A stretch of DNA of 64,000 nt, taken from sequence record PZ445432.1. One strand, written 5' to 3'. This DNA is from a phage. The translations under genes and the position numbers were made by a program. Below the pieces are notes generated by a model, which saw only the letters and a program-made list of their open reading frames with translations, did no database searches and was not told where the DNA came from. This document shows, one piece after another, positions 31,312 through 64,000 of this stretch. How positions within the stretch are numbered: position 1 is the stretch's first letter; every line of letters starts with the position of its first letter.

Positions 31312-31326
31312 TGTAAATATTTTAAT

Positions 31327-45080: not shown

Positions 45081-45179
45081 TTGATCTAGTACCAATTACT
45101 GCGGGACTAATAGCACTATTAGTGCTCGCAGTTTTCATTATTGTGGAGCAGGCCAAAGTAATAAGGAGACTTAAAAACA

Positions 45180-46157: not shown

Positions 46158-46164
46158 TTTTAGG

Positions 46165-46200
46165 GGGCCAGGGCTTAACTGTTCTGGCCTTTTATGTTTT
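46165..46200 (+). terminator. rho-independent terminator
   Basis: ggccagggcttaactgttctggcc followed by ttttatgtttt. Confidence 0.65.
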
Positions 46201-46213
46201 CAAGGAAATTCAA

Positions 46214-46417
46214 ATGCAAGTATATGTCCTTACTAGAGATATAAATGAGTATAATCAGGATGGTGAGTATTTTGTAAAAGTATTCGCTGAAAAGCCAAGT
46301 AAACAACAATTATTAGATGTTGGAGTACCGGAAGACCAGGCTAAGTGTTTATTACAGGATAAAGAGTTTACTGGAGATGCTTACGAATGTTTCCACCTTA
46401 GCTGTGAGACTATTTAG
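46214..46417 (+). CDS. hypothetical protein
   Basis: ORF from track. Confidence 0.45.
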   Translation: MQVYVLTRDINEYNQDGEYFVKVFAEKPSKQQLLDVGVPEDQAKCLLQDKEFTGDAYECFHLSCETI

Positions 46418-46418
46418 T

Positions 46419-46865
46419 ATGAGAGAAAAAGTAAATGAATTATTAATCGAGGAAGCTAACAACTTTCCAATAAATAGGTTCGTCAAATCAGATGGGTCTA
46501 TTAATAGAACTAAGATTAAGCAGCTACACCCCGACTTCCAGCAAGAAGCGCTAAACCTTATCTTTATCAAGAAAGCCATTGCAGCTCACGGGGCTTTCTT
46601 TGGGTATGAGCGTGTAAATTATAAAACAATGCAGCAGCAAGTCGAGATCTATTGTCCAGACCATGATGGTTATTACTGGCAAACTGCTAGATCTCATTTA
46701 GAAGGGCATGGATGTCGACTGTGCGCACACAAGGTTGTGCAGCGTGTCACGGATTATGGAACTTATACCGTACCAGCATGTTACCATAAATTTGTAATTG
46801 ACGATAATCACATAGTTTGGTATAATAAGTTTTCAAAGTTAAGAATGGAGATAAGTAGTGAGTAG
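46419..46865 (+). CDS. hypothetical Cys/His-rich protein (possible nuclease-associated domain)
   Basis: CPDHDGYYW...HLEGHGCRLC cluster; start at ATG overlapping upstream stop. Confidence 0.45.
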   Translation: MREKVNELLIEEANNFPINRFVKSDGSINRTKIKQLHPDFQQEALNLIFIKKAIAAHGAFFGYERVNYKTMQQQVEIYCPDHDGYYWQTARSHLEGHGCRLCAHKVVQRVTDYGTYTVPACYHKFVIDDNHIVWYNKFSKLRMEISSE

Positions 46866-47148
46866 CTATATTGTATGGTCAAACCCACTAGCAGCACTTA
46901 GTAACAAACTATTTAAAACAACGTGGGGGTATAATGAAATAGACTTAGGTAGTCACCCAATACCAAACAAACATCCCTTAGTTCCAGAGCTGTATAGGGT
47001 AGTGATAAATGGCGCGGAGTATTTGGTTGATAAATTTGACAGAAAACGTTTACTAGAGGGTATCTACGATAATTCTACATCAATAAATGAATTAGTAGAA
47101 CATGCCCAAATATATGATAAAAGCTGGATGTTAATATGGAGATCATAG
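46858..47148 (+). CDS. hypothetical protein
   Basis: ORF from track. Confidence 0.45.
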   Translation: MSSYIVWSNPLAALSNKLFKTTWGYNEIDLGSHPIPNKHPLVPELYRVVINGAEYLVDKFDRKRLLEGIYDNSTSINELVEHAQIYDKSWMLIWRS

Positions 47149-47360
47149 TAATTATTTTAGCAGTTATGTTGTTTATTGTAACATTTGTATCATTTGCTAT
47201 TATGCGCAGAGCTAGAGAACTAGCGGAAGATATAACAAAATTACGTGGTGAGTTGGCTGCCCTTAAACTACAGCGCGAGGCTTTAAAGTTATTTGTGGTT
47301 CAAGTAGCGTGGAGCATACAACAGAAGACTTCATCACGTATCTCAAACATTACATGGTAA
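47136..47360 (+). CDS. small membrane protein
   Basis: N-terminal TM helix. Confidence 0.4.
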   Translation: MEIIVIILAVMLFIVTFVSFAIMRRARELAEDITKLRGELAALKLQREALKLFVVQVAWSIQQKTSSRISNITW

Positions 47361-47367
47361 TTAAATA

Positions 47368-47553
47368 ATGGAAACTCTTTTTCTTTTAATGCTTGTAGGT
47401 TCCCTGCTAGTCATATTAGCACTTCTACTAATCTGCAATATTCTTAATAATAAGAATTTAGAGTTAAAGTGTGAGAACCAAATCCTTAATCGTGAACTTA
47501 AACAATATAATCTAGCAGCTCATAAACTGCTAGACAAACTGGAGAATAAATAA
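47368..47553 (+). CDS. small membrane protein
   Basis: N-terminal TM helix. Confidence 0.4.
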   Translation: METLFLLMLVGSLLVILALLLICNILNNKNLELKCENQILNRELKQYNLAAHKLLDKLENK

Positions 47554-48161
47554 TGTTTACACAACAACCTATTCAAGTAGTACCAGATCATGAACTGAAT
47601 ACATGGGATTATAGCTTTAAAGATTTAACTGCTACTGTACAATTCAAATCTATGAAGCTAACCTTTGCACACACTAATATTAAAGCATGTAAAGATTTTG
47701 AAGGTAGGCTCAACAACGCTCGTAAGATTTTTGGTACGGCTCGGATTCCAGCTGATAACCTTATTAACGCATTAATAGATGCGGGCTATAAACTCGTGAA
47801 GGCTGAGGTGAACCGCCCTAGTACTCCAGTAACTGTTAGTGATCCGTGGCAGTCAGGGCCAATTATAAGGTGGAACAGTCCTAAAATAACGTCGGATTTG
47901 CACAATGTTCCATGCGGTGGTGCGCTGTCGTCTAATCAGTCCTATCGAGTTGGGGAAGATTATGGGCCTTCTGCACAGTTGAAACATACTCAAGAAGCTT
48001 TTGAATCTGACATGAAAAGCGTAGCACCTGCAGATGCTGGAGTTTCTAGGAGTTCTGTTTGTACTATTCATTTTAATAATCCTAGTAAACATGGAAGTCT
48101 AGAAGATGCTATTATGGGGGCGTTGGGAGCTGCTCTTAATGAAGATAAGAGAGGTAATTAA
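47553..48161 (+). CDS. hypothetical protein
   Basis: ORF from track. Confidence 0.5.
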   Translation: MFTQQPIQVVPDHELNTWDYSFKDLTATVQFKSMKLTFAHTNIKACKDFEGRLNNARKIFGTARIPADNLINALIDAGYKLVKAEVNRPSTPVTVSDPWQSGPIIRWNSPKITSDLHNVPCGGALSSNQSYRVGEDYGPSAQLKHTQEAFESDMKSVAPADAGVSRSSVCTIHFNNPSKHGSLEDAIMGALGAALNEDKRGN

Positions 48162-48886
48162 TGAGTATTAAAAAGAATTTAGCAGAGATTATTAAATTAG
48201 CTAGAGCTTGTAATGGAAAATGTGTTTCTCAACTTAATGAACTAGAGGCACATGCAGTAGCGTTTTGTGCAGAGTTTTATCCTGCATATATTAACGCTAG
48301 TGGACAGCCGAAATATAATAAAGATGCAGAAGAAGTTACGTTAGCTCCTTCGTATATTAGTATACGTCGTCTGATTCAAACTGTTGACCCTAATATTAAA
48401 GGATTTTCAGCAGATTCATTCCATGTTTTTGCGGATAAAGAACTCCCACATTTTAAAGAAGGAAGTGCAAAGACAGCCCTAGAATGTTATCCTAATATTT
48501 TGATGATTCCACCTAAGCAATGTAAGTATGATCATCTTCCTAGACTTACAAAGAAAGTAGAACCACCTTATTCTTCTCTATCTGAATTAAAGCTAGGAAT
48601 TGTATCTACACTTGCGCAGGTTCATCTAAGTATAGTTGACGACTCAACAACATCTAATCCAGTCTTAGATGCTGCACATTATGAAATTTTACGTGACCCT
48701 GAACAGGCTAGAAAAGTTGCGAAGTCTGTTAAGTTTGACATCTCAACAATTCTTGATACGATGCAAGATACGAGACCTAGAGGAAGTGTAGATTATTCTG
48801 CGCTAAATTCCGAGTCATCTTACCTAGCAACATTCCTTTTCATGGCATCGAAGGGAATCATACTCAAAGTCAATCACGATGTATAA
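48161..48886 (+). CDS. hypothetical protein
   Basis: ORF from track. Confidence 0.5.
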   Translation: MSIKKNLAEIIKLARACNGKCVSQLNELEAHAVAFCAEFYPAYINASGQPKYNKDAEEVTLAPSYISIRRLIQTVDPNIKGFSADSFHVFADKELPHFKEGSAKTALECYPNILMIPPKQCKYDHLPRLTKKVEPPYSSLSELKLGIVSTLAQVHLSIVDDSTTSNPVLDAAHYEILRDPEQARKVAKSVKFDISTILDTMQDTRPRGSVDYSALNSESSYLATFLFMASKGIILKVNHDV

Positions 48887-48902
48887 ACGTTAACAAAATC
48901 TT

Positions 48903-48931
48903 CTTGACATTATTTGAGCTGTATGTTATAA
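48903..48931 (+). promoter_or_regulatory. perfect-consensus sigma70 promoter (TTGACA, 17 bp, TATAAT)
   Basis: ttgacattatttgagctgtatgttataat; no ORF for ~1.7 kb downstream. Confidence 0.6.
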
Positions 48932-49225
48932 TAATCTCATAGATTAAAAACATCAACTTGTTTTTACCTCTAGGCCGTAGATTTACATCATTCCTCGTAG
49001 GAAAACACTTGATGACGGTTCTGTTCGCAGGTTCTCGTCAATTGTTCTTCCTCCCCGAGACTCAGGAGGATGTATCAAATCGCACGCGCCTAGAGGGGCT
49101 AACTCTCATGAAATGGGGGTATATTAACTTTTAAATAACTGATAAATATTTAAAGGCAATATCTGTGTTCAAGATGATACACCTGTTGCCGCTCATCTGC
49201 TAGGATGGCACAACACTTTCTTCTA

Positions 49226-50065
49226 GACTCCTAAGTTTCTAGGAAATTGATAAGCACAAATTCTAGAGATCGCACAAAAATATTCATCGGATTTGCACAT
49301 ATTCTAGGAAATTGATAAGTACAAAAATATTCATCGGATTTGCACATATTCTAGGGCAGTTTCTCTCAAACGTTACACATACTAGGCGGTTAATATAGGG
49401 CGGTTATAGGGAGGGCGGTTATTTCTAGGAGACATTTTTTGAAAACACATTTCTGGATTTTACTGTCGGATTTGCACACTGCATTTCTAGAAATTTATGG
49501 TCGGATTTGCACAAACGCCTAAGTTTTTAGGAACATATAATCTCTTGAAAATGGCAGCATTATTTCGGGCCGAAGGCCCATGATTGCCTGAGTTTTTAGA
49601 GCCACAGGAATTTTCACTTGTCAAGCTATTTTGCCCCATTTTGCTAATAAAATTTTACTTTTTCTGCACCTATCTCAAATTTCCCCAAATTATCTCAACT
49701 CTTCCCCAAAACCCCGCAAATCAGGTGCTCCGCACCAATCCTGCGCCCACACCATTCTAGCCTCCCAAATTTCTCTCGCTCTCTCATCTTCTCCTCAAAC
49801 CTATACAATCACACACCCTCTCATCGAAGTCACAAAAATTTCATCGGATTCGCACAAATAAACCCATGTCGGATTTGCACATATTCTAGCTAATTCCACA
49901 GGATTGATGCGCAGCATCGGATTGCTGGAGTTTTTGGGAAAATTCGTCGTCGGATTCGCACATCACAAAAGTTTTTAGGGTCGGATTTGCACACTACCAA
50001 AAATTGTCGGATTCGCACATACACGCCCGCACGTAACACCCGTGGAGCAATGTCGGATTTGCACA
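49226..50065 (+). repeat. array of ~12 direct copies of core tcggat(t/c)(t/c)gcaca, some inside longer ~50-bp repeat units
   Basis: repeated atcggatttgcacatattctag, gtcggatttgcacactgc, gtcggattcgcacat and similar, all on one strand. Confidence 0.7.
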
Positions 50066-50071
50066 AAAGCG

Positions 50072-50089
50072 CAGGGCAATTGCCCTGCG
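50072..50089. repeat. 18-bp perfect palindrome gcagggcaattgccctgc
   Basis: read directly. Confidence 0.7.
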
Positions 50090-50094
50090 ACTTT

Positions 50095-50335
50095 GAATGA
50101 GAATCATTATCATTTAAGAAGTGGAATGCAAATGATAATTATTCTCATTTAAGAAGTGGAATGATTCTCATTTAATAAGTGGAATGCAAATGATAATTAT
50201 TCTCATTTAAGAAGTGGAATGAGAACTATTCAAGAAGTGAAACGATTCTCATTAAAGAAGCGAAACGATTCTCATCCTAGAAAGGGAATGCAAATGATAA
50301 TGATTCTCATTTAAAAACGGAAGTGAGAAACACTG
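50095..50335 (+). repeat. tandem degenerate repeats of (g)attctcatttaagaagtggaatg
   Basis: about 8 copies with variants aagaagtgaaacg / aagaagcgaaacg / aaaaacggaagtg. Confidence 0.7.
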
Positions 50336-50344
50336 TTATTTAAG

Positions 50345-50452
50345 TTATCCACAGACTTATTAACAGCACGATTTGACTTGACAGAATCCTAGCCATTTTG
50401 AGGCGTTATCCACAGACTTATCCACAGCTTATTCTACTGTATAAATATACAG
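50345..50452. repeat. left inverted module with three DnaA-box 9-mers (TTATCCACA) and 16-bp palindrome ctgtataaatatacag
   Basis: ttatccaca at ~50345, ~50406 and ~50418; palindrome at 50437-50452. Confidence 0.7.
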
Positions 50453-50648
50453 TATTCCTACGCAGTGAATAATTCTAATATAGGCCTAAAACGTCCTGAA
50501 TCGCATTCTAGCGCGTTTTATTTTGGCGGGGATACTAAAACAAGGGCAAAACTGGAGGAGGCTTAGAAATTAGTTAGCTCGCTAACGATCACACAAGGCG
50601 ACACGTAACACCCTAATCATTAGCAGGCTAACCATCGCGGGCGCGGTC

Positions 50649-50669
50649 AAATGAGAATCATTCTCATTT
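50649..50669. repeat. 21-bp palindrome aaatgagaatcattctcattt
   Basis: read directly; related to the gattctcattt repeat unit. Confidence 0.6.
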
Positions 50670-50709
50670 GAGGATTGGGGGCACTTCCTGATAATTGCCC
50701 CCGTGATTA

Positions 50710-50904
50710 TTAGTCCGGTAATTGATGCGTGATCTTCTCCTCTTCCCCGTAGGAATCGACTAAATGCTGATAATAACCATCATGATCATAAATGACTTTA
50801 TCATATTCGCCCAGCTCGACCGCTTGCCGGTTTTCCGGAGTATCGGGCACATAAAAAACGTCAACCATTGTGGTAGTTTTGGTCACAATAATTTTATCGC
50901 TCAT
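50710..50904 (-). CDS. hypothetical protein
   Basis: ORF from track. Confidence 0.45.
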   Translation of the reverse strand: MSDKIIVTKTTTMVDVFYVPDTPENRQAVELGEYDKVIYDHDGYYQHLVDSYGEEEKITHQLPD

Positions 50905-50919
50905 AATAACGCCCCGTTA

Positions 50920-51114
50920 TTAGTTGACTATCTCAAAGATAGCGTTCTCAAGTGTCGCCCTTAGGATCCCATCGCGCCCTACTACGGAATACTTGAGATC
51001 AGGTATTTTGTAACGCTCAATTGCTTTGAGTAATTGATCTTTTTGGGCTTTATATTTTTGCCCTTCTCGCGCTATCGTGTCGCCTTCGGCTTTAATGCAA
51101 ATCAGTGTAACCAT
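50920..51114 (-). CDS. hypothetical protein
   Basis: internal ATG preceded by AGGGGG RBS; track ORF extends to 51201. Confidence 0.45.
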   Translation of the reverse strand: MVTLICIKAEGDTIAREGQKYKAQKDQLLKAIERYKIPDLKYSVVGRDGILRATLENAIFEIVN

Positions 51115-51396
51115 AATAATCCCCCTAGTAAATATATTTTTGCCAATAGCGGCGAACGTTATCGCCACCAGCGGAATCATTAGCTGCCTTACTATTACCA
51201 ACGAAAATATATAATCTCATTAGTATTATTTTCCCCGCATTAATTTATACATAACTAACATCCCGCAAAACTGACCTAAGATAGTGCAGACAACAAGGGA
51301 TAACACAATATTGCCTATGGTGTTATAAGTAACCACACCAACAATAAGGGATAATGCATACCCTAGCAGGGCAATATAAACAGCCATATTATTTAC

Positions 51397-51732
51397 CTAT
51401 TTTCGAAACGCTGTTTCAATACTATCAGCCGTGGATTGAATATACGCGCCTTTCATTATCAGGCGCTCGGTGCATACTTTGCGAAAAATATTAATAAAAT
51501 CATCTTCATTTTCTGCGATTAACGCCTCCCCCATGACCTGAATATCACACGATGCAAAGGTCAAAAATTGAAACGCTAGTTCACGGGCGACGACCGCATT
51601 AATTTTATAATGCGCCTTTCCATCGTAAATATTAACAACGCCCTTATATTCAGGCGAAAGCTGATTTAAGTAGTTTGCTAATAATCCCGGGCGGCAATTA
51701 GTAACAAAGCGATTCCCTTCATAAATTACCAT
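51397..51732 (-). CDS. hypothetical protein
   Basis: ATG preceded by GGGAGG RBS. Confidence 0.5.
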   Translation of the reverse strand: MVIYEGNRFVTNCRPGLLANYLNQLSPEYKGVVNIYDGKAHYKINAVVARELAFQFLTFASCDIQVMGEALIAENEDDFINIFRKVCTERLIMKGAYIQSTADSIETAFRK

Positions 51733-51855
51733 TTTATAACCTCCCAATCAGATAGCCAGATAAAAGCATAAAAATCCCCAGCGAACTAGGGTCATTCTTA
51801 AACAAGGTGGCGGTAAAACCGCCAACCATTGCAAGGATAACAACAATAACGCTTT

Positions 51856-52068
51856 TCATAGTACCCCACGAAACGCAGCGTAAAAGGTGGCAAAGTGTCT
51901 AACCGTTTCAGCTATCACGTTGCCGCGCTTATCGAATTTTTTCTCGGTAACACGAAAGGCGTTTTTATTCCGTGCTACATATTCGATTTTACAATCTTCC
52001 CGCTCGAACGTGTTAACGTCCACCAGCTTAAAGCCTTTGGAACGAGCAAGGGAAACATTACGAATCAT
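51856..52068 (-). CDS. hypothetical protein
   Basis: ORF from track. Confidence 0.45.
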   Translation of the reverse strand: MIRNVSLARSKGFKLVDVNTFEREDCKIEYVARNKNAFRVTEKKFDKRGNVIAETVRHFATFYAAFRGVL

Positions 52069-52070
52069 TT

Positions 52071-52259
52071 TTATTCTCCTTTACTATTCATGCAGCCCAG
52101 CAGATAAGAAAATACAGCGACACCCGCGCCAATAATAACCATAGGTTTAGTATTTGCTAAACTGCAATAAGAATCCTGAATACCATAAGCGGTGGCGAAA
52201 AGAGTCAAAATAGCGCCCAAGATACCTGCTAAAAAAGCCCGAAAAATAACCATTTTCAT
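52071..52259 (-). CDS. small membrane protein
   Basis: two hydrophobic helices. Confidence 0.4.
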   Translation of the reverse strand: MKMVIFRAFLAGILGAILTLFATAYGIQDSYCSLANTKPMVIIGAGVAVFSYLLGCMNSKGE

Positions 52260-52299
52260 TCTCCTAGTTAGTGGGGCGAAAGTAGCGCCCCGTTATTAC

Positions 52300-52530
52300 T
52301 TACATTAAAACGATTTTGGCGGCTTGTTTTTTGGTGCAATGTTCTGCTTTCAGGGTATCCAGCAAAAAGCCCGCCGTTTGCTGATCGATTTGATCATTAT
52401 CATAAAGCGCCTGAATGGTAGTGTAAGTTTTAGCAATGCCGTATTCTTGCACCATTTCTTGAATGATCCAGCGATTTGATACCCAGCCTTTTCCAGTGAA
52501 AAGATGACTAGCAGAAGAATAAGCAACCAT
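52300..52530 (-). CDS. hypothetical protein
   Basis: ORF from track. Confidence 0.45.
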   Translation of the reverse strand: MVAYSSASHLFTGKGWVSNRWIIQEMVQEYGIAKTYTTIQALYDNDQIDQQTAGFLLDTLKAEHCTKKQAAKIVLM

Positions 52531-52648
52531 TATAAGCCTCCAAAATTTTTTGGGAAATTTTCAACCGTCCTCAAACGGTGTAAGGGCATTATAACAAAAA
52601 GGCCGCCATAATCGGCGACCTTTACAAAACTTTACATTAGATTATTTA

Positions 52649-53641
52649 TTACTCGTTTTCGGTGTTAGTGGTAAAAGTAGAAATATCGATACCTTTTACC
52701 ATTTCATCAATCATCTCAGCGATGTTAAAACTTTGCACCATTTCCAACATTGCCGCTTCCATAGCCGCTCCTGCTACCGCTTTCGCTTTCTGGTTATTCG
52801 GGGCGTACTGGTCAACCGCTACACTCAGCAGGTTAGCGATCACTACTCGACCGATCGGCGTATCAATATAGCCTTTAATCATAAATGGCGCTTTTTTAGC
52901 CGCTACTTTCGTGATTTGAGTTAGTGCAATTTTACCCGCTTCCAGTTTTGCAGCATTTACAACAGCGGATTTATTAGCGGCAACGATGTTAGCGATCTTA
53001 GTCATGGTATTTTTTCCTTTGTTTTCAGTGGTTTGAGTGTTAACGCTTTGAGTGTTAGAATTTACAGCATGTTTTTCTATATTGTCAATAGGCTGATCTT
53101 CATCTTTCCAGAAAGAAAAGCCCGCGCTTTCTATATCCCCATCGTATACGTATGGGTATACTTCCGACGGTAGCAAAAAATTGCCATCATCATCAAAGGC
53201 CATTACAGCCGCCAGACGATACCCGTCACCGATTGACCGATTCCAGCCAACTGATAAATAACGCCAAAATGAATCAAGAAAGTTTTCAACGTCATAAAGA
53301 TCCTTATCATAAGGCTCATAATTTTCTATTGAAAAAACTTCTAAGCCCGCCCCAGCATCATAGGCTTTTACTGTGCTACCTTTTACGATTATGAAATCAG
53401 TGTCCGGCCCCCTACTAGTAAGCAGGTGATTATCCCTATTATATAAGATAATAGTTGCCCCTTGCTTATATAATGGTAGAAAACTACTCATATCATAGGC
53501 GTCGAAATCATCAAAAAAATTCTGGTGAATATCTTCGGCCTTGTTAACAAAGTGCTTAATGCTGGTTGTTCTGCTACCGTCCAGCAGGTTGCGCAGCGCA
53601 CCTTTTAAGACGGTTGCGTTATCTGGTTTATATAGCCTCAT
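52649..53641 (-). CDS. hypothetical protein (330 aa)
   Basis: ORF from track; largest gene in the inverted-repeat-bracketed block. Confidence 0.55.
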   Translation of the reverse strand: MRLYKPDNATVLKGALRNLLDGSRTTSIKHFVNKAEDIHQNFFDDFDAYDMSSFLPLYKQGATIILYNRDNHLLTSRGPDTDFIIVKGSTVKAYDAGAGLEVFSIENYEPYDKDLYDVENFLDSFWRYLSVGWNRSIGDGYRLAAVMAFDDDGNFLLPSEVYPYVYDGDIESAGFSFWKDEDQPIDNIEKHAVNSNTQSVNTQTTENKGKNTMTKIANIVAANKSAVVNAAKLEAGKIALTQITKVAAKKAPFMIKGYIDTPIGRVVIANLLSVAVDQYAPNNQKAKAVAGAAMEAAMLEMVQSFNIAEMIDEMVKGIDISTFTTNTENE

Positions 53642-53907
53642 TTGTTGGCCTCCCTCGTTAATCGGTGAGTGAATGATAAAGGCAATTTTCTAGCATAGGC
53701 AAATATTATTTTACCTTTTTATTTTCCTTGCCTAGCGCCTAGTTTTATGCTAACCGCGCAGCGGTACAGTAAAGAGCAAAACACGGTGAAGCCACCAGGC
53801 CGACGCGTTGAGGCTTTACTTTAATATTACCCCACTGCGTTTAGCTCGTTAGAAAGCGATTTAGGCCGCTTAAAATTGATTGCAGTTGTTAACACTACCT
53901 TTTTACC

Positions 53908-54015
53908 CTGTATATTTATACAGTAGGATAACCTGTGGATAAGTCTGTGGATAAGCCCTTATATCGCCGCCTATTGTGTCAAATCATTTTGTGCTGTGAT
54001 TAAGTCTGTGGATAA
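53908..54015. repeat. right inverted module with three DnaA-box 9-mers on the opposite strand and palindrome ctgtatatttatacag
   Basis: tgtggataa at 53934, 53946 and 54007; palindrome at 53908-53923; reverse complement matches the left module. Confidence 0.7.
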
Positions 54016-54039
54016 CTTAAATGATAGTTTTTCTCACTT

Positions 54040-54420
54040 AGGCCGATAGTTTCTTATAGTGATTATTTTTATAGTGATTATTTTTATAGTTATTATTTCT
54101 CATTAATTTATATGTATATTATATAATATGAAATAGTTAGTTGGCTAATGAGATTTTACGGGATTAGTAGTCTGCTAATGGTTCAGGCTGTTACAATCCA
54201 CCAGCACGATTATCATTCTAGTAATTATTAGTCTGCTATCTTTCTAATACACAACAACAAATAAAAGTCAATTAATTAATTTTATAAAATAACTCATTTA
54301 GTCTTGATTTTTAAAAGTCAATACCTTTTACAACTATTTTTCAATTTTGCTTTTATTAAATATTTGTTAAGTCGAAAATAAGCCGCCTAAAACGCCCTAG
54401 AAAGCGGTAAAATTTTCAGG
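54040..54420. repeat. AT-rich region with short direct repeats (ttatagtgattattttta copies; agtctgctaa copies)
   Basis: read directly; adjacent to the DnaA-box module. Confidence 0.55.
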
Positions 54421-54765
54421 TATCCCATCATAAGGGGATAGCCCGTTTATCGTCACCTGATGGATTCTAGAAAAATCAAGTAGGGCAAGGCAAATATAAG
54501 TGAAAAAATTACTTGCCTATCTGCTATGTTTTGTGGTATCCGCGCGCCCGTTTCCTTTAAACTTGGGCAATCGCCGGACACCTTGCTTTCTTTACATTTC
54601 TTTACAAAAATAAGGTTGCGCCATTTTTGGTATTTGCTATTATTTACCTCGTAGGGCGGCAATGACGAACTACACGGCGGGAAGTTTACCGCCGCGCTCT
54701 TTAAAAATTGGGTATATCTTAAAGTCTATCGGCGGCAAACTTATACATTATAAGGAATCGCAGAT

Positions 54766-54969
54766 ATGAAACAAACTTTATTGATCACTGGCAAGCCAGC
54801 TAAAAAACTGGATGGCAATACTAGAAAGCTGTTGACAGTAGCGCAAAGATCAGTAAAATATCGATTTAAGCAGTACAAGAAAGGCCGCCAGCAAGGTCTA
54901 GAAATGATCTGGCGAAATATTATGATCGACCTAAAGGAAAATCATAAAAAACTGCAAAAAATTGTTTGA
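54766..54969 (+). CDS. hypothetical basic protein
   Basis: AAGGA RBS. Confidence 0.45.
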   Translation: MKQTLLITGKPAKKLDGNTRKLLTVAQRSVKYRFKQYKKGRQQGLEMIWRNIMIDLKENHKKLQKIV

Positions 54970-55134
54970 CAACCTAGCCGATAGGCTTTAAGATGTACCC
55001 AGTTCGATAAGAGCGATAACTTGATACAATTTGACGGCCGGTACTTGCCATAATGTGCCCCGCCCCCTAACTGGGATATAGCGGCCCGCGTGGAGTTCTT
55101 TAAATTGATTATATTGGCAAGCGGATTTTTTCTT

Positions 55135-55160
55135 ATTACCTGCTAGAAAGTAGCAGGTAA
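55135..55160. promoter_or_regulatory. palindromic operator-like site ttacctgctagaaagtagcaggtaa
   Basis: perfect 11-bp arms around a 4-bp centre, ~40 bp upstream of ORF 55198. Confidence 0.4.
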
Positions 55161-55197
55161 TGCGGAACAATCCACTAAATAAACTGGAGTTTATACT

Positions 55198-55449
55198 ATG
55201 CAAAACATTACTAATGCGCCGAAAGTTGGTCAATCCGTTTTTATCCCTTTCGTTACTAAAACGGACGAGGCAACCGGAAAGGCCGAACGCATCAAAGGCG
55301 CGGCGCTTATGCCGTTTGATGTGATTGATGCGGTATACGCTGAAACGGAACAGAGTAACAACGGGAAAACCGTTTTTAGCGTTCGCGTTAAATCCGGCGA
55401 CGTTGTAAAGGTTGCCCAGCGTAACGAAAAATGGGAAGCTGTAGCGTAA
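55198..55449 (+). CDS. hypothetical protein
   Basis: GGAG RBS. Confidence 0.5.
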   Translation: MQNITNAPKVGQSVFIPFVTKTDEATGKAERIKGAALMPFDVIDAVYAETEQSNNGKTVFSVRVKSGDVVKVAQRNEKWEAVA

Positions 55450-55552
55450 TATAGTGTTAACTTTATATTCCCCCAGTAGTTCGGGGGGAATATAACGATT
55501 AACATTATGTTAATCATTTAATCCCTTAAATTAAATCGATAGGAGCTATATC

Positions 55553-55969
55553 ATGACTAACGTTAAAGCCGAAAAATCCGCAAAATTTGCTTGGAATGAA
55601 GAAAACACCCAGCAGGCGGTTACTATGTATCAGCAGTTAATTAATGAAAACGGATTAGATTTTGCAAATAGCGACGGTTTAAAAGAGATTGCGAAAGCAG
55701 TTGGCGCGGCTTCTCCCGTGTCCGTTCGGTCAAAATTGACCAGCGCGAAAGCCTATCAAAAAAGCGATAAGCCGCGCAAAGTTGGCGGCGGCAGTTCAAT
55801 CCGCAAAGCGCATTACGTGCGCGTTATTGCAAAACATGCCATCGATTCCGGCATTATCAAGGACGCCGATGATCTGGCATCACTGGAAAGCGCAAAATTA
55901 GAAACGTTGGACGTCGTGGCGCAGATGTTAGGCGTTGCCGATGAAGTAAAACAAGCCGCAGGCGAATAA
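55553..55969 (+). CDS. hypothetical protein
   Basis: ORF from track. Confidence 0.5.
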   Translation: MTNVKAEKSAKFAWNEENTQQAVTMYQQLINENGLDFANSDGLKEIAKAVGAASPVSVRSKLTSAKAYQKSDKPRKVGGGSSIRKAHYVRVIAKHAIDSGIIKDADDLASLESAKLETLDVVAQMLGVADEVKQAAGE

Positions 55970-56058
55970 TAGTTATATCTTGCCCCTTCTAGCGAGGGGG
56001 CAATAATATAACTGTTTAGCGATAGTTATTTTCTTCCCCTAAATCAGGAGTTTTAAAA

Positions 56059-56256
56059 ATGATCTTTTACCCTACTGAATCGCTCATTCTAGGATTATTT
56101 ATTATGGCGGCCTCATTATTGTTTGCTTATTTCCAAAATGATCTGGATTCGTATTATTTTAAGCGCAAAGCTAAATTAGCAAAGCGGTTGGGCTTACTTT
56201 GCTTAATTGCCGCCGTTGCTTGTGGTGTTAGTTCTAGCCTGATGCCGATTAGTTAA
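56059..56256 (+). CDS. small membrane protein
   Basis: two hydrophobic helices. Confidence 0.4.
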   Translation: MIFYPTESLILGLFIMAASLLFAYFQNDLDSYYFKRKAKLAKRLGLLCLIAAVACGVSSSLMPIS

Positions 56257-56353
56257 ATATCGCAAGTTATAACGCCTATTATTTAAGGCGTTATATCTGG
56301 CAATATTGCCAATAACAAACGTTTTTTAATCCCTTTAATGGAGTTTTATTATT

Positions 56354-58024
56354 ATGGTTATTTCCGCAGAAAAACAAACCCAGATCCTCAACCTTGCCGC
56401 TGATTTCAATTTCTATGGTAAACGTCTGCGCGCTACTAAGCTGGAAGTTTGTGACGATATTTCAAAAGCTGTTTATGATACGCCGAAACATTCCACCGCT
56501 ATTTGTGACTGGTTGGAAGCAAATAAACCAGCGAAACCGAAAGCGGCGAAAGTAGCAAAAGCCATAAAAAACGATGACCGCCCTGAAGCCGCTGGAGTTA
56601 TTTCTAGCACGGTGGAGCAATGGGAAGTAAAACAAGGCAAACGCTTTATCATTACATCGATTCAGAATAATACTTTCCCGCATAAAAACTTTTTGGCCGC
56701 GCTTGAACAATATGCCCAATTTATTGGAGCTGATTTGCTGGTTAGCAAGTATATTTATAATAAAAACGGTTTTCAAAATGGGGAAGGGGCAGACGGAATC
56801 AAATATGATTCTGCATTTGACAAATATATTTGCAGCAAAAACGTGTTTTTAAATAACCGCCGCTTTGCTTTCATGGCTGAAATTAATGTTTTGCCAACCG
56901 CAGATTATCCGCTATCTGGATTTGCTGAAACTGCAACCGCGCTTAATCTGGAAGGTCTGGCAATTGGTCACGCTAAAATCACCGCCGAAAGCGTGCCAGC
57001 TTTAAAAGGTGAAGTAGTGCGCCGCATGTATTCAACCGGAACGGCAACGCTAAAAAATTACATTCAGCAGAAGGCAGGGCAAAAAGCGGAAGCGTTACAT
57101 AATTTTGGTGCGCTGATTGTCGAGTTCGACGAGGACGGAGAATTTTTTGTTCGCCAGCTTGAAACGATGGACGAAAGCGGCGTTTTTTACGATTTGAATA
57201 TTTGCGCCACTCCCACCGGATGCTATGAAACAACGGGGCACGTTTTAGGTTTACAGTATGGTGACATCCACGCTGAAAAATTAGATGAAGAGTGCGCCGC
57301 TGCATCATGGGGGCATGGTGATACCTATGGGCTTGTGGATATTCTCAAACCAAAATATCAATTCGTCCATGACGTGCATGATTTTACATCACGCAACCAT
57401 CACAACCGCGCCTCCGGTGTATTCCTAGCAAAACAGTACGCCGCCGGACGTGATAAGGTTCTGGATGATCTTATCGATACGGGGCGCGTACTGGAAGCAA
57501 TGGAGCGTGATTTCTCTCAAACAATCATTGTTGAATCGAATCACGATCTGGCGTTATCCCGCTGGCTTGATGATCGTAATGCTAACATTAAAGACGACCC
57601 AGCAAACGCGGAACTATATCACCGCCTGAATGCCGCGATTTACGGAGCTATCGCAGAAAAAGACGAAACCTTCAACGTGCTTGATTATGCGTTGCGCAAG
57701 GTTGCAGGTTGCGAGTTTAACGCCATTTTCCTAACGACTGACCAATCTTTCAAGATTGCAGGCATTGAATGCGGCGTACACGGTCACAATGGCATTAACG
57801 GGAGTCGTGGCAATCCTAAACAGTTTAAGAAATTGGGCAAATTAAACACGGGGCATACTCATACGGCAAGCATTTACGGCGGTGTATATACCGCTGGCGT
57901 TGCTGGTAGTCTGGACATGGGTTACAACGTTGGCGCGTCAAGCTGGACGCAAACGCATATTATTACCTATGTAAACGGTCAGCGCACTTTGATTGACTTT
58001 AAGAATGGTAAATTTTTCGCATAA
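56354..58024 (+). CDS. A1: pre-early protein A1-like (metallophosphatase-like motifs)
   Basis: 556 aa as recalled for T5 A1; GDIHAE and GHNG...GHTHTA motifs; synteny with A2-like and dmp-like genes. Confidence 0.7.
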   Translation: MVISAEKQTQILNLAADFNFYGKRLRATKLEVCDDISKAVYDTPKHSTAICDWLEANKPAKPKAAKVAKAIKNDDRPEAAGVISSTVEQWEVKQGKRFIITSIQNNTFPHKNFLAALEQYAQFIGADLLVSKYIYNKNGFQNGEGADGIKYDSAFDKYICSKNVFLNNRRFAFMAEINVLPTADYPLSGFAETATALNLEGLAIGHAKITAESVPALKGEVVRRMYSTGTATLKNYIQQKAGQKAEALHNFGALIVEFDEDGEFFVRQLETMDESGVFYDLNICATPTGCYETTGHVLGLQYGDIHAEKLDEECAAASWGHGDTYGLVDILKPKYQFVHDVHDFTSRNHHNRASGVFLAKQYAAGRDKVLDDLIDTGRVLEAMERDFSQTIIVESNHDLALSRWLDDRNANIKDDPANAELYHRLNAAIYGAIAEKDETFNVLDYALRKVAGCEFNAIFLTTDQSFKIAGIECGVHGHNGINGSRGNPKQFKKLGKLNTGHTHTASIYGGVYTAGVAGSLDMGYNVGASSWTQTHIITYVNGQRTLIDFKNGKFFA

Positions 58025-58079
58025 TTAAATTATTCCCTAGCGGCTTGAAATATAGCCGCTATTACAGGAGCCACAAAAA

Positions 58080-58370
58080 ATGAAAATTAATTTACCTAGC
58101 AATGAATTTTCCCCTAAAACTTCTTTACTAGATGATATTTCTTATCAAGATGCTTATATAAATGAGGAAGTATATCGCGCTTGTTCTGACCTCCTAGAAT
58201 ATCCCGATTATCCAATCTATAAAGGTGATTTCATTATACCCGTTTATAATGGTGTGCTAGTAGTAGGCAAAGCTGGGGTTATTGTTATAGATAGTTGTAC
58301 ATTGTCACAAGAAACGTTTAAAGTGCCACTAGAGTTAACTAATTATTCTCCTAGTATTACAGTACAATAA
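58080..58370 (+). CDS. hypothetical protein
   Basis: ORF from track. Confidence 0.45.
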   Translation: MKINLPSNEFSPKTSLLDDISYQDAYINEEVYRACSDLLEYPDYPIYKGDFIIPVYNGVLVVGKAGVIVIDSCTLSQETFKVPLELTNYSPSITVQ

Positions 58371-58407
58371 ATTAAGTCCCTTATTAAACTAATTGGAGTT
58401 TATAAAT

Positions 58408-58800
58408 ATGAAAAAGCAAAATATCCCATTCGATCGCGCTCAGTCTTCTATCGTTCTGGTTTATTCTAATGGTGCGCGGTATCACGTCGAGGCCGGTCAC
58501 GTTGTCGATGACTTAATCGAGTTTAATGACGTTTTGCAGGTTACTACTTTCGCCTATACCACGGGCAAGCTATCCAGCCGCATCAAGGCGAAAGGCGTTC
58601 ACATTGACACGATGAAACAAGAAACCATCATTATTGACGCGGTAAAATCCGGCCTAGCCTTTGCAGTTGTCGCGCCTTGCCCCGCTTGCCTTGATGATCA
58701 GCTAATGAGCGCAAAAGTATTTACTTGTGCGGGGATTCGTTCCGATGTATCAGGTGAAGATATTAGTTTTATCGCTGATGCGCTGGCTTATGGTCTTTGA
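58408..58800 (+). CDS. A2: pre-early protein A2-like
   Basis: ~130 aa between A1 and dmp; start at ATG after GGAG RBS. Confidence 0.5.
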   Translation: MKKQNIPFDRAQSSIVLVYSNGARYHVEAGHVVDDLIEFNDVLQVTTFAYTTGKLSSRIKAKGVHIDTMKQETIIIDAVKSGLAFAVVAPCPACLDDQLMSAKVFTCAGIRSDVSGEDISFIADALAYGL

Positions 58801-58880
58801 TAGTTGATTTATTATTGCCCGCTGATAAATAGCGGGCAATGCTGGATAAACTAAATCCCTTTAATGGAGAACGTAACAAA

Positions 58881-59615
58881 ATGAATCAAGTTAAAACGAA
58901 TATTACCCGTAATTTCCCGCATGTTTCCCGCGTCATGATCTGGGATCTGGATGGCACTATCGTTAACTCATTCCATCGCGTAGCGCCTTGCTTTGATAGT
59001 GATGGTAATCTAGATCTGAATAAGTATAAAAATGAAGCGTGCAAACATGATTTAATAATGCAAGATACTTTATTGCCGCTTGTTACATATATGCGCCAAT
59101 GCATGAATGACGCAAATACTTTAAACATTATTTGTACCGCTCGACTGATGAGCAAGTCGGACTATTATTATTTGCGCAAACAAGGCTTGCGAGGGCGTGG
59201 GAATAGCAATATCCGTGTATTTTCCCGCGATACACTGCATAAGTATTTTGAAGCTGATAAAGTTAGCGAAATATACCACAGTAAGGACGCAGTTTATAAA
59301 AGCCACTACTTTGAGTTATTTAAGCAGTTATATCCGAACGCTGATTTCACGATGATAGACGATCATAAAGGTGTGCTAGCAGCGGCGGCATCATACGGAT
59401 TTAAAACGTTGGACGCGCAAGCCGTTAACGATATTCTATCAATCGGTGTTACATTGATAGGCGAAACCTTTATCGACGAATCTCTTGAGGATGATAATGA
59501 TTATCAGTTCCTAGTCGATCGCTTGCAATTATGTTGGGAAAGTATGACCGAGGAAGAACGCGCAGAATATAGTTGCAGCCCGCAACAATATATCGAGAAA
59601 CTAAAAGTTGCATAG
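58881..59615 (+). CDS. dmp: 5'-deoxyribonucleotidase (HAD family)
   Basis: MIWDLDGTIVNS HAD motif I; 244 aa from the internal ATG with GGAG RBS. Confidence 0.7.
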   Translation: MNQVKTNITRNFPHVSRVMIWDLDGTIVNSFHRVAPCFDSDGNLDLNKYKNEACKHDLIMQDTLLPLVTYMRQCMNDANTLNIICTARLMSKSDYYYLRKQGLRGRGNSNIRVFSRDTLHKYFEADKVSEIYHSKDAVYKSHYFELFKQLYPNADFTMIDDHKGVLAAAASYGFKTLDAQAVNDILSIGVTLIGETFIDESLEDDNDYQFLVDRLQLCWESMTEEERAEYSCSPQQYIEKLKVA

Positions 59616-59630
59616 TAATTAAAGTTGATA

Positions 59631-59670
59631 TTGTTTCACCTTGCAATTAAAATGGTTGCAAGGTGAAACA
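59631..59670. terminator. 15-bp perfect inverted repeat hairpin between convergent genes
   Basis: tgtttcaccttgcaa ...10 nt... ttgcaaggtgaaaca; no T-tract. Confidence 0.45.
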
Positions 59671-59790
59671 GTTAGCATGATAATAGTAACGGGGGTGGCG
59701 GTTAGCAGACTAAGTATTTTCGCCCAGCCCACTGCACCCACCCACGCGTACGTAATCCAAAGAATTTGGCAAAAGTCATTTTAGCGCTAA

Positions 59791-60330
59791 TTACCTGTTT
59801 AATTGGGCAACGTCTGGTATACTTCCTTTGAACATCTCCTGTATTGCAAAGTCACCATGAAATGTCCTTCTTAGTAAATTTGCATAATTTACGGCATCTT
59901 CTAATTCGCTATAGGGAAAGTACTTAGTAGTGCCCCTTATCAGCCCCTGTTTATCGTGTAATCTTACCATCCACTTCTGAAGTTCTTTATGCCATGTAAC
60001 ATTTAGATAGCCTGATGATGCTCTTGAGATTCTGCCATTATGATTATTCTCTGTAATTGAAGCCTCTCTTAAATTTGACCATCTATTATTTAGTTTATTC
60101 CTATCTATGTGGTCTACACATTCCTCTGGCCATCTATTCTCCATAATAACAAAAGCTACTTGATGTGCATAAGCTTTAAACCCTCGATACTTGAGCTGCC
60201 TATATCCCCTATTTAAAGTACCTGCTTCTTTACCCTTACGATTGCCGCTTTTCCAGGTAAAAACTCCAGTTTCGGGGTCATAAGCAAATACTTCTTGTAT
60301 TTCCTGTATATTTAGATTATTCTTCACCAT
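59791..60330 (-). CDS. HNH homing endonuclease
   Basis: VDHIDRNKLNNRWSNLRE HNH signature; N-terminus paralogous to the other HNH ORFs. Confidence 0.7.
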   Translation of the reverse strand: MVKNNLNIQEIQEVFAYDPETGVFTWKSGNRKGKEAGTLNRGYRQLKYRGFKAYAHQVAFVIMENRWPEECVDHIDRNKLNNRWSNLREASITENNHNGRISRASSGYLNVTWHKELQKWMVRLHDKQGLIRGTTKYFPYSELEDAVNYANLLRRTFHGDFAIQEMFKGSIPDVAQLNR

Positions 60331-60372
60331 GAACCTCCATGTGTAATCTTATGAAATTTGGCAAAAGTCAAA

Positions 60373-60618
60373 TTAGTGCATAGAAGGGTCATCAAACCTG
60401 TGTTCTGGTCTAAACTCACGGAATCTCTTCCGCGACGCCCGAGAACCATCATTCCACTCCCGTTCAAACTCCGCACGTTTCTCATCGAACTTCCGCTCCC
60501 TTTCCGCAATCTCCCGCGATACTTCCGCAATATATTTACGATGCCTGTCGATAGCCGCAGTCATCCCGAAAACTCCCGCAAGTACCCCGATAATAAAAGC
60601 AATTATAATACTAAACAT
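60373..60618 (-). CDS. membrane-anchored hypothetical protein
   Basis: N-terminal TM helix then charged region. Confidence 0.4.
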   Translation of the reverse strand: MFSIIIAFIIGVLAGVFGMTAAIDRHRKYIAEVSREIAERERKFDEKRAEFEREWNDGSRASRKRFREFRPEHRFDDPSMH

Positions 60619-60805
60619 CTAATTCCCTCTCAATTTGCAGAATACGGGTGCTACCACAACGTTGCAGTAGTACTAGCTTTTCTAGAGCAACTTGTTGTTG
60701 TTTTACTTGAGCTTCTAGAGTTTTTAGGCGAACATACGCGTTATAAGAAACAATGAAAGTTGCCCAGACTAGTATTACTATTAGTGTAGCTACTATTTCC
60801 ATCAT
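60611..60805 (-). CDS. small TM/coiled-coil peptide (tandem paralog family)
   Basis: MEIVATLIVILVW... TM helix followed by LEAQVKQQQ coiled-coil. Confidence 0.4.
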   Translation of the reverse strand: MMEIVATLIVILVWATFIVSYNAYVRLKTLEAQVKQQQVALEKLVLLQRCGSTRILQIERELDV

Positions 60806-60908
60806 TTACGCTTCTCCGTTAATAAGGTTTCAATTCTAGCTAAGTGATTATCTAAAATACATTGCCCGATAATCACAATCCCTAGTAGTGCAATAATTAC
60901 CCATTCCA

Positions 60909-61094
60909 TTATTTACGCTCCTCTAATAAAGTTTCAATTCTAGATAATCTATTGCTCAACTGCATTAATTTAACCTCTACTTGGGTTACAGAGGTATCTA
61001 TTACACGTAAGCCTACAAAGAGAAGTATTAGTAAGACGAATATGCCAATAATTACCCATTCCATTAAATCCACCCCGCCATAGCTGCTAACCAA
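60909..61094 (-). CDS. small TM/coiled-coil peptide (tandem paralog family)
   Basis: MEWVIIGIFVLLILLFVG... then RLSRIETLLEERK; a third 35-aa copy lies at ~60808-60910. Confidence 0.4.
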   Translation of the reverse strand: MVSSYGGVDLMEWVIIGIFVLLILLFVGLRVIDTSVTQVEVKLMQLSNRLSRIETLLEERK

Positions 61095-61368
61095 AAACCT
61101 ACGAAAATAAAGAATAGAATAGTTCCGAATCCAAAGCTATTAATCCAGCTATCGTACACTTCCCCACGTCTACTTTTTCTTCTGTTTGACATATCTTTCA
61201 TGCTCCTATAAGTGCGGTATTTGAAATATTCTATAACTTGTGCACAACCAACCGTGCCTATGAACTCCTAGAAGGACTTCTACTTTTCCTACCTAGTGGT
61301 TTCTGCCAGTACACCATCCGAGAAATAAAAAATTTAGTTTACTTGGATGTCTTTTTGCTTTATACTAA

Positions 61369-61635
61369 TTACAGGTAGTTAGATTGCTCTAGTTTAAATT
61401 TACAATCACCGTATTTAAGATCAAACTGACTGAGATCCCACCACCCAAACTTAGTACGGAGCTGTACTACTGGAAAGCGATCTCCCTTAATACGAACTTT
61501 TTGAACCTTGAGGCCGTAATGCTCCTCCCCAGCACCGCCAAAAGATTTTACAAATCCCGTACAAAATGGTTTGGGAGCAGGTGCACAACCAGATAACATA
61601 GCTGCGGCAACTAGTGCAATTACAAACTTTTTCAT
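61369..61635 (-). CDS. llp: Llp-like lipoprotein (receptor-blocking superinfection exclusion candidate)
   Basis: lipoprotein signal with lipobox LSGC; divergent from and adjacent to the putative receptor-binding protein gene. Confidence 0.6.
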   Translation of the reverse strand: MKKFVIALVAAAMLSGCAPAPKPFCTGFVKSFGGAGEEHYGLKVQKVRIKGDRFPVVQLRTKFGWWDLSQFDLKYGDCKFKLEQSNYL

Positions 61636-61659
61636 ATTTATCTCTCCATTTCTAATTTA

Positions 61660-61702
61660 TGAATCTATTATAGCAAAATAGAGGGATGAAAGCAAATACA
61701 TT
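61660..61702 (-). promoter_or_regulatory. conserved early sigma70 promoter driving the llp-like gene
   Basis: minus strand: aaaaatgtatttgctttcatcc ... gctataat. Confidence 0.55.
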
Positions 61703-61720
61703 TTTATAATAGGAGATTAT

Positions 61721-63508
61721 ATGGGTTTTTTCGCTGGAAAATATAGTGATGGTAAAACTGTATTATCACTAAACAAGGTGAATGGGGGGGATATTAATGC
61801 TCACAAAACTCCTAACGCCAATACTATATTTCATTCTGACATGCCATTTGTTCTAGTTGAGAGTACGTATGAGAGTGCGTTAAGTAGTGCTGGTAATGGG
61901 TTCTTTGTATGTCAAATGCCTTCTGATATAGCTAATTTAAAGAGCAACGACCCTGGTAGAGTTATACTAACCGCTGTTGAGATAAACGGTACACATAGAG
62001 CTTTTCTTAATGGTACTCAATCCCAGGTTGGGCAGTTCTCAGCATTTTTCGAGGATTTTGCTAGTGGTAGGGCTGGTGCTGAATTATCTGTAACATCTGC
62101 TTTTGCGATCGGTGATAGTTTAGCACACGGTACTTATACTTATAACTCTGGTTTAGGCCATGAGGAATCTATTGCTCGACAAGGTTCTGGGGGCAGTTTA
62201 CTACAGGCCTCTGGGTTCCTGATCTATAGACCTGGTGGTGTTTCTGCTGGTGAAGCCATTTCCAGAGCCTGGAATCTTATGGGTTTTCCAGCGGGTGTCT
62301 CTACTGTTCCTTTAGATAGTAATCACGCAGATTATTGGGAGCCTAACTGGCAGGCACCTATTGGGTCTGCTGGTAGAGGTCACAATTGGTTTTATGTTTG
62401 TAACTCCAATATTCGTGGCTTTGCAGGTAAGAAAGGTGTATTACCAAATAACGTAAACGTTATTTATAAATCCCCCGCATACCCAGAAAAAATCTATGTT
62501 TGTAGAGGTTCTACCTCTAACTTAGCGAATCAAAGTGCTAAAAAAATGATTGTACAAGATAATTTTAATGTAACTCCAACTAAGGTTATTTGGTACGTAT
62601 TGAATCTTAAGTACTCTAATGGGGGTATGAGTGTTGCTAGTAATCCCTTTACTGGATCCGATATTCATATAAGTCCATCTAACTTTACTATAAAAGGTGT
62701 TAGTCTTCCAAACACTAGCTACAAATTCATTAATCAGAATGCTTTTGGTAATTTAGCGTCTAGACCTGATATGGAGTATGTTGGTAATAACGCTGCGTAT
62801 ACCGGAGTTTTTGGTGATAATACTGCAAGATGTGAAATTGTAGGTTCTAATAAAGGCTCTTTATGGTCTCCAGTAGATTATGGTGGTTCTAAGTCTCAGA
62901 TAAGTATTTACAAATTCTCTGCTGGTAAGCAATGGTATGTTAATTCCAACAATAATACTATAGGTAATGAGCATGGAGTTGTTTGGGGACCCTCTTCAGT
63001 ACCTTTACGATTACTACCAAATAACGTAGCCAGTACTTATATAGGTGATGACATAAACCCTTCTTACCCGGGTACAGGTAACAAGTATGTAGCCTTATCC
63101 ACAGTAAGTCTTGGACTACCAAATGCAAACTCTACAGTAATCCTAACTACTGAAGTAGTTGCTGGAAATCTTAATACTGCTGGAATGCCTGTGCGTACTT
63201 ACAGTGGTAGCGCTTGGCAGGTACAAGGTAGACGTAAACAAAGTTACACAGCTGGTGATGGCATATTCCATCAAATATTAACTTTACCACCCAACCATCT
63301 AGTACCATTCCATACTACAGCTTCCTATAGCTATGCACAAACTCAGGCTAGTAGGCCTGATGATTTAACATTTACTAGAAATGGGTTTATTTATACTATT
63401 AAAAATTTGGGTAACGGTAACGTTGAGTTGGGTGTAGTTATACATGCTGCGGAAGCGGCAGCTGTTTTCTTACCAAGACTACGTGTAACAGTTCAACGCC
63501 TTACCTAA
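61721..63508 (+). CDS. putative receptor-binding tail protein (pb5/Oad-like)
   Basis: 595 aa; placed divergently next to the llp-like gene as in T5; Gly/Ser/Asn-rich beta-type composition. Confidence 0.55.
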
Positions 63509-63518
63509 AGGAGGAAAT

Positions 63519-64000
63519 ATGGCAAATGATGTATTAGTACCAGATCTTATGTCCCCTGAAGGGATGGATGTAATTGAAGCATATTTACAGTGTGGCAGCG
63601 ATGTGCCTTCTGCCGCACGTAGTCTTGGAATGTCTGAAATTGCTTTCCGAGATATTATGAATCGTAGCGAAGTTAAAAACTACTTAAATGATATTTTTAT
63701 GGAGAGTGGTTTCCGTAATAGAGATCGTTTATTTGGTGTTCTAGATGAAGTTATTAAGCGTAAACTAGAGGAACTGGAAGAAACTGGCATGGGTTCTGAC
63801 CAAGATATTATGGATATTCTCTGGAAAGCACATAAAATGAAAATGGAAGAAATGAAAATGATGGTAGAACTGGAGAAAGTGAAGGCAGCAGCCCGCACTC
63901 CAGCTAACCAGACCAACATCCAGAATAATATTATTGCTGGAGCTGGGGATCAAAACTACATGGACTTAATTACTTCCCTAGCTACTGGAGGTAAGAAGTA
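63519..64000 (+). CDS. hypothetical protein, partial (runs off window end; HTH-like N-terminus)
   Basis: GGAGG RBS; [20 protein letters not shown]-like segment; 3' end truncated. Confidence 0.45.

Follow-up and report, generated by a model that had tools for sequence, protein, structure and literature searches.

The closest described counterparts of the locus examined here are found in T5-like phages that use either FhuA or BtuB as receptor. In phage T5, FhuA is bound by the receptor-binding protein (RBP) pb5, also called Oad, and by the lipoprotein Llp (PDB 8A8C, 8B14, 8A60, 7QJF; van den Berg et al. 2022, PMC9586334). Four pb5 loops enter the FhuA barrel in the pb5-FhuA structure, with Gln115 at the tip of L1, Phe170 at the tip of L2 and L4 formed by residues 570-590, while T5 Llp binds the plug from the periplasmic side with the extracellular loops folded inward (PMC9586334). 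Phage BF23 carries hrs (oad) and llp in the same order and orientation as the genes described below, with BtuB as the receptor (Mondigler, Ayoub and Heller 2006; OR083247), and later papers that cite this work (PMC4728585 and PMC10644984) describe BF23 Llp as a BtuB blocker through which superinfection is prevented. Golomidova et al. (2016, PMC4728585) described phages DT57C and DT571/2, in which the Llp is of the conserved BF23 type and the BtuB-binding RBP is divergent and mosaic. When DT57C llp was supplied from a clone, the efficiency of plating dropped by a factor of more than 100 for BF23 and for the phages of the DT57C series, and T5 was unaffected (PMC4728585). Epseptimaviruses such as EPS7, Stitch and S147 are BtuB-dependent as well and belong to the same BtuB-type family.

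We analyzed a stretch of 64,000 nucleotides of phage DNA (sequence record PZ445432.1), referred to below as the window. Window positions 44000-63519 were identical (100% DNA identity) to positions 92089-111607 of MZ501074, the genome of Escherichia phage HildyBeyeler (Bas33; MZ501074 / NC_105119), and the final 481 bases of the window correspond to the small terminase gene, with which that circularly permuted record opens. The BASEL collection (Maffei et al. 2021, PMC8594841) includes this phage, which is a Tequintavirus. The initial annotation of the region had described an 88-aa lipoprotein with the lipobox LSGC, divergent from a 595-aa tail protein, and both open reading frames were recovered exactly as placed there; their PHROG matches, given below, mark them clearly as genes and not as chance frames. 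In HildyBeyeler the products with 100% identity are those of bas33_0192, annotated as 'superinfection exclusion protein', and of bas33_0193, annotated as 'receptor-binding tail tip protein', respectively. We conclude, with a probability of roughly 0.93, that this locus serves the T5-like phage HildyBeyeler as its module of host recognition and lytic conversion, of BF23 type and specific for BtuB. This type of module is already published, as a BF23-type hrs/llp pair in an annotated and phenotyped phage; the additions made here, RBP mosaicism and a conserved llp promoter of T5-early type, are minor. The features of the locus are as follows.

61369..61635, minus strand: llp (BF23 type), precursor of a receptor-blocking/superinfection-exclusion lipoprotein, 88 aa (open reading frame; LPAM_1 and phrog_1119 matches)
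61636..61720, no strand: divergent intergenic region, 85 bp, with the llp promoter and both Shine-Dalgarno sites
61667..61695, minus strand: candidate sigma-70 early promoter of llp; -35 TTGCTT at 61695..61690, 17-nt spacer, extended -10 TGcTATAAT with its hexamer at 61672..61667
61721..63508, plus strand: receptor-binding tail-tip protein (oad/hrs, pb5 family, BF23/BtuB type), 595 aa (phrog_4815, pb5 in the PDB, BF23 Oad)
62081..62560, plus strand: central variable segment of the RBP, aa 121-280 (segment identities, DNA identity, tblastn)
63520..64000, plus strand: 5' part of the small terminase subunit gene (terS), cut by the end of the window (homologues annotated in SP3, BF23, Stitch and others)

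The 595-aa protein matched phrog_4815, 'receptor binding tail protein', over its full length (1-595; 2.2e-268). No Pfam family was matched by the RBP. In a phmmer search of the PDB, the only matches were 8a8c_B and 8b14_B, both T5 pb5 (E 3e-46, about 28% identity), so similarity to T5-like RBPs is present. Against two of the proteins that the initial annotation had named for comparison, identity was 28.4% for T5 by tblastn and 86% for BF23 Oad/Hrs, the latter in a gap-free alignment of two 595-aa proteins. The length of about 640 aa that the annotation gives for T5 pb5 also proved right, as oad of AY692264 encodes 640 aa; the HildyBeyeler RBP is thus 45 aa shorter. Identity to the FhuA-type RBP of S131 was 29%, and identity to other BtuB-type RBPs was 82% for Stitch and S147, 69% for DT57C (whose RBP has 586 aa and other mosaic patches) and 68% for IrisVonRoten. 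The HildyBeyeler RBP therefore lies within the BtuB-specific cluster (68-87% to BF23, DT57C, S147, Stitch and IrisVonRoten versus 28-29% to T5 and S131), and in the BASEL paper the position in such a cluster serves to predict the receptor. Among 50,697 phage records, the next-best RBP, that of Kenya-K18, was only 87.1% identical, and the exact allele is therefore so far found only in HildyBeyeler.

The literature assigns the same receptor. S5 Table of the BASEL paper lists 'LPS / O-antigen' as primary and 'BtuB' as terminal receptor of Bas33, and that paper describes, for the collection as a whole, receptor determination by plating on single-gene mutants, with no phage affected by the fepA knock-out (PMC8594841). 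A further paper states that HildyBeyeler targets BtuB (PMC12639943). It is on this published basis that infection by HildyBeyeler is taken to depend on BtuB. The proposal of a T5-like host-range module whose receptor may differ from that of T5 is thus borne out by a pb5 homologue, the 86% identity to BF23 Hrs and the BASEL entry.

The 88-aa open reading frame begins with MKKFVIALVAAAMLSG, immediately followed by CAPAP..., and has the lipobox MLSG/C. This lipobox was the only motif found by Pfam (LPAM_1, 23.7 bits against a cut-off of 20). The signal peptide comprises aa 1-16 (61588-61635), the codon of the lipid-modified Cys17 lies at 61585-61587, and the mature protein has 72 aa, in which Cys25 and Cys78 are invariant in the alignment. 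Under the +2 sorting rule, the residue after the lipid-modified cysteine decides outer-membrane sorting; the Ala at this position is consistent with sorting to the outer membrane. The protein matched phrog_1119, 'Cor superinfection exclusion protein', at 1.5e-25. Compared with the BF23 'receptor blocking protein' it differed at one position, in the signal peptide (87/88 identical), and it matched DT57C Llp at 86/88. Since every difference among the three phages falls in the signal peptide, the mature 72 aa are identical (72/72) in HildyBeyeler, BF23 and DT57C. By analogy with the published activity of the identical mature DT57C protein, HildyBeyeler Llp would exclude phages of BF23 type and not T5.

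Within the phage collection, 174 records carry the Llp allele of HildyBeyeler at 95-99% identity. A second class of alleles (60-80% identity, 213 records) goes with Epseptimavirus-type modules (66-68% identical in EPS7, Stitch and S147). As the first class is conserved at 95-99% and its partner RBPs share only 68-87%, Llp is far more conserved than the RBP.

Earlier papers call the Llp proteins of BF23 type and T5 non-homologous (PMC4728585, PMC10644984). BLASTP of HildyBeyeler Llp against T5 Llp gave 28% over 67 aa, mostly signal peptide, and with hhalign a 12-sequence alignment of BtuB-type Llp proteins aligned to T5 Llp only in columns 1-29, that is, in the signal peptide and first Cys. With the signal peptides removed, hhalign gave an E value of 0.18, which is not significant; the forced local alignment was collinear from end to end. 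A PDB sequence search with Llp returned chance matches only (ovomucoid, TrwH) and did not return T5 Llp, and in comparisons aimed at a shared fold small SH3/chromo/BAH-like barrels scored equally and Foldseek gave no match. Both full-length proteins, however, matched phrog_1119, and their mature domains alone did so at the same profile positions, 17-78 (2.6e-16 for HildyBeyeler and 1.4e-11 for T5), although both may be seed members of that family. The mature T5 protein has 61 aa compared with 72 aa here. The cysteine layout (lipid-modified Cys, a Cys 8-9 residues on and a Cys near the C-terminus) is collinear with the C11-C58 disulfide of T5 Llp, which clamps the termini of that protein (PMC9586334). 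The profile matches and the cysteine layout speak for a common family of the two proteins. Common ancestry and fold of the BF23-type and T5 Llp proteins are likely but unproven.

The 85-bp region between the two genes (61636-61720) shares 95-99% DNA identity with BF23. It holds the Shine-Dalgarno sequences GGAGAG of llp (minus strand) and AGGAGA of the RBP gene (61711-61716), together with the candidate llp promoter, whose extended -10 is followed by AGATTCAT. The -35 and -10 hexamers are invariant in T5, BF23, Stitch and IrisVonRoten while the flanking coding regions diverge, and the T5 and BF23 records annotate a promoter at this position. The llp promoter resembles the strong early promoters of T5, PN25 for example. 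Given this promoter type, and by analogy with T5, llp would be expressed early. A generic promoter and terminator scan yielded 4 promoter-like sites versus 8.1 in shuffled sequences and missed the llp promoter, because its -35 matches at just 3/6 positions.

The promoter core TATAATAGATTCAT occurred at 10 sites in the window at two or fewer mismatches, versus 1.8 expected. An exact copy lies at 2577-2590 on the minus strand, and copies with 1-2 mismatches lie at eight other places, for example 9601-9614 (minus strand). The other sites are probably further early promoters of T5 type, judged by this motif. For the RBP gene, no convincing sigma-70 promoter was found by the scan or by sequence comparison of the intergenic region. 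The perfect TATAAT at 61705-61710 (plus strand) was considered as an RBP promoter and rejected as improbable: it abuts the Shine-Dalgarno sequence, is deleted in T5 and reads TAAAGA in Stitch. BF23 and IrisVonRoten keep it.

The placement of the pair is that of other T5-like phages. The gene order A2, A1, dmp, small open reading frames, llp (minus strand), RBP/oad (plus strand), terS and terL is that of the T5 right end, and an RBP gene upstream of terS/terL and divergent from llp is seen alike in T5, BF23, Stitch, DT57C and phiR2-01. As terS begins 11 nt past the RBP stop codon and has its own AGGAGG, the two genes are probably co-transcribed, and the RBP gene is presumably part of a late transcript. 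On the other side, downstream of llp and on the same strand, small open reading frames of 45, 61, 64 and 81 aa occupy 60373-61201 (minus strand; bas33_0187-0191). Hydrophobic stretches occur in several of them. They are kept beside llp in T5 (T5p155-158), BF23 and DT57C, where the annotation lists two as putative membrane proteins, and these small frames and llp may share a transcript.

The pre-early genes A2, A1 and dmp (about 55553-59615) adjoin the llp/RBP region; dmp belongs to the pre-early region, which in T5 is the terminal repeat. Between dmp and the small-ORF cluster lies a 179-aa open reading frame (59791-60330, minus strand), a putative homing endonuclease in the HildyBeyeler annotation. 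T5 has no gene at this position; its terminal repeat boundary falls there, between dmp.2 and T5p158. The window also crosses the arbitrary origin of the deposited HildyBeyeler record, with window position 63519 equal to record position 111607 and terS running from the record start. Given this crossing and the position of A2, A1 and dmp beside llp and the RBP gene, the deposited genome seems to be a circular assembly in which the long terminal repeat was collapsed to one copy. A search of the whole window with Rfam returned tRNAs only, and none in the llp/RBP region; 11 tRNA genes at the Rfam gathering score lie at 25421-31572 (plus strand), and T5-like phages typically carry such a cluster.

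Segment-wise comparison indicated that the RBP is a mosaic of BF23-like flanks and an Epseptimavirus-like center. Residues 1-120 and 361-480 were 88-100% identical to BF23 and 72-80% to Stitch (flank identity to the Epseptimavirus group is 70-80%), whereas residues 121-280 were only 60-75% identical to BF23 and 80-95% to Stitch and S147. At the DNA level, identity to BF23 was 94-99% across llp, the spacer and the 5' end of the RBP gene and fell to 65-71% at 62200-62599; the rest of the genome is that of another Tequintavirus. A tblastn search of the phage collection with aa 95-300 gave a best match outside HildyBeyeler of 85.9%, and all matches were RBPs of Epseptimavirus type. A comparable mosaic between DT57C and BF23 Hrs has already been described (PMC4728585).

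In the phmmer alignment to pb5, T5 Q115 corresponds to F113 of the window protein and T5 F170 to Y169. The L2-tip equivalent (Y169) lies inside aa 121-280 and the L1-tip equivalent (F113) just upstream of it, and around both sites HildyBeyeler departs from BF23, with FEDFASG versus FEDPPIG and with a 16-residue stretch set against BF23 FNLYGPGGAYAAEAMG. As the L1- and L2-tip equivalents fall where the two phages differ, the mosaic probably concerns the receptor-contact end of the protein, as far as an alignment across 28% identity places it. The sequence does not reveal how finely the protein discriminates among BtuB variants; in the central segment, no other RBP in the collection exceeds 86% identity.

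A module specific for FhuA, as in T5, or for FepA, as in H8, is a very improbable reading of these data. Two names speak for FhuA: the best family of the Llp is labelled for Cor (phrog_1119), and Cor proteins block FhuA (PMC9586334), while the homologous RBP of phage Sepoy is annotated as 'FhuA receptor-binding tail protein'. These labels are transferred names, however, and not tests, and the RBP itself is 28% identical to T5 pb5 and 29% to S131 but 86% to BF23 Hrs. The identical mature Llp gives no protection against T5 (PMC4728585), and the BASEL entries on which we draw, with BtuB for Bas33 and no phage hit by the fepA knock-out, speak against FhuA and FepA alike. We regard it as scarcely credible that the 88-aa lipoprotein is some other small outer-membrane lipoprotein of phages, such as an o-spanin acting in lysis. 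A small lipoprotein sorted to the outer membrane with conserved cysteines would fit superficially, but there is no overlapping or adjacent i-spanin, the neighbors being the RBP and the small open reading frames kept by llp in T5; no spanin family was matched in PHROGs; and the mature sequence is identical to that of a protein with demonstrated exclusion activity.

An alternative that we consider unlikely, yet not negligible, keeps the module BtuB-type and gives the recombinant central loops a fine specificity unlike that of BF23 (other BtuB alleles or species, escape from BF23-resistant loop mutants, or a second receptor), with Llp, which would act from the periplasmic side, unchanged. The divergence of aa 121-280 from BF23 (60-75%) toward alleles of Salmonella-phage epseptimaviruses (80-95%), the closest non-self RBP at 87.1% and the position of the pb5 L1- and L2-tip equivalents where the RBP departs from BF23 would all suit such a change, as would the 97-99% conservation of Llp across phages with RBPs of 68-87% identity and the same uncoupling in DT57C. 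Both parental types of RBP allele bind BtuB, however, and the phenotype data examined do not set Bas33 apart, in its receptor, from the remaining BASEL phages of BtuB type. For this group, moreover, host range is ascribed mainly to the lateral tail fibers and the O-antigen (PMC4728585, PMC8594841).

For the BtuB-specific module that we favor, the proposed sequence of events is as follows. The RBP would sit at the tip of the straight central tail fiber and bind irreversibly to BtuB, the TonB-dependent vitamin B12 transporter, and this binding would trigger DNA ejection. Llp, made early from its sigma-70 promoter of T5-early type, would then bind BtuB and make it unusable for RBPs of BF23 type; the block would prevent superinfection and spare progeny from loss on cell debris. 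If it acts as T5 Llp does on FhuA, Llp would bind the periplasmic face or the plug of BtuB and refold the extracellular loops. PDB sequence searches with the RBP and Llp found no BtuB-Hrs or BtuB-Llp structure, and the binding mode is therefore extrapolated from T5 and FhuA across 28% identity for the RBP and 15% for Llp. More speculatively, Llp could be truly homologous in structure to T5 Llp/Cor, with its target changed from FhuA to BtuB and the same periplasmic 'reverse allostery', or the RBP loops could confer a range of BtuB alleles distinct from that of BF23, or escape from resistant mutants, with the unchanged Llp still compatible; we hold these two proposals to be improbable. If the first were true, one small disulfide-clamped barrel would jam different TonB-dependent transporters.

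Labels in public records of this module are inconsistent. In Sepoy (MK728825), SE11 (MK972715), ABTNLsp4 (MW149273) and others, the BtuB-type RBP is named 'FhuA receptor-binding tail protein' or 'receptor-blocking protein'; likewise, Llp appears as 'Cor superinfection exclusion protein' and terS as 'SciB protein'. Phage vB_SenS_S124 (OK108607) was considered as an example of the FepA type and set aside, because its RBP and its receptor-blocking protein have the lengths of the HildyBeyeler pair (595 aa and 88 aa). Klebsiella phage VAC51 was left out as an llp comparison, the open reading frame at the llp position not being a lipoprotein. In this Sugarlandvirus (vB_KpnS-VAC51), the frame at 549-773 (minus strand), upstream of a pb5-like RBP, begins MEVAIIVLVLIVG and is without a lipobox; that lineage may therefore lack the exclusion-lipoprotein partner or have another in its place.

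The HildyBeyeler locus is a further natural case of a conserved Llp that tolerates a recombined RBP. It also offers a hint, against the 'no homology' of the older papers, that the BF23-type and T5-type Llp proteins share a family and a fold. The RBP/Llp pair determines the outer-membrane transporter on which a T5-like phage relies and the way in which the infected cell shuts that receptor off, and knowledge of it is relevant to host-range prediction, the design of phage cocktails and receptor-swap engineering.
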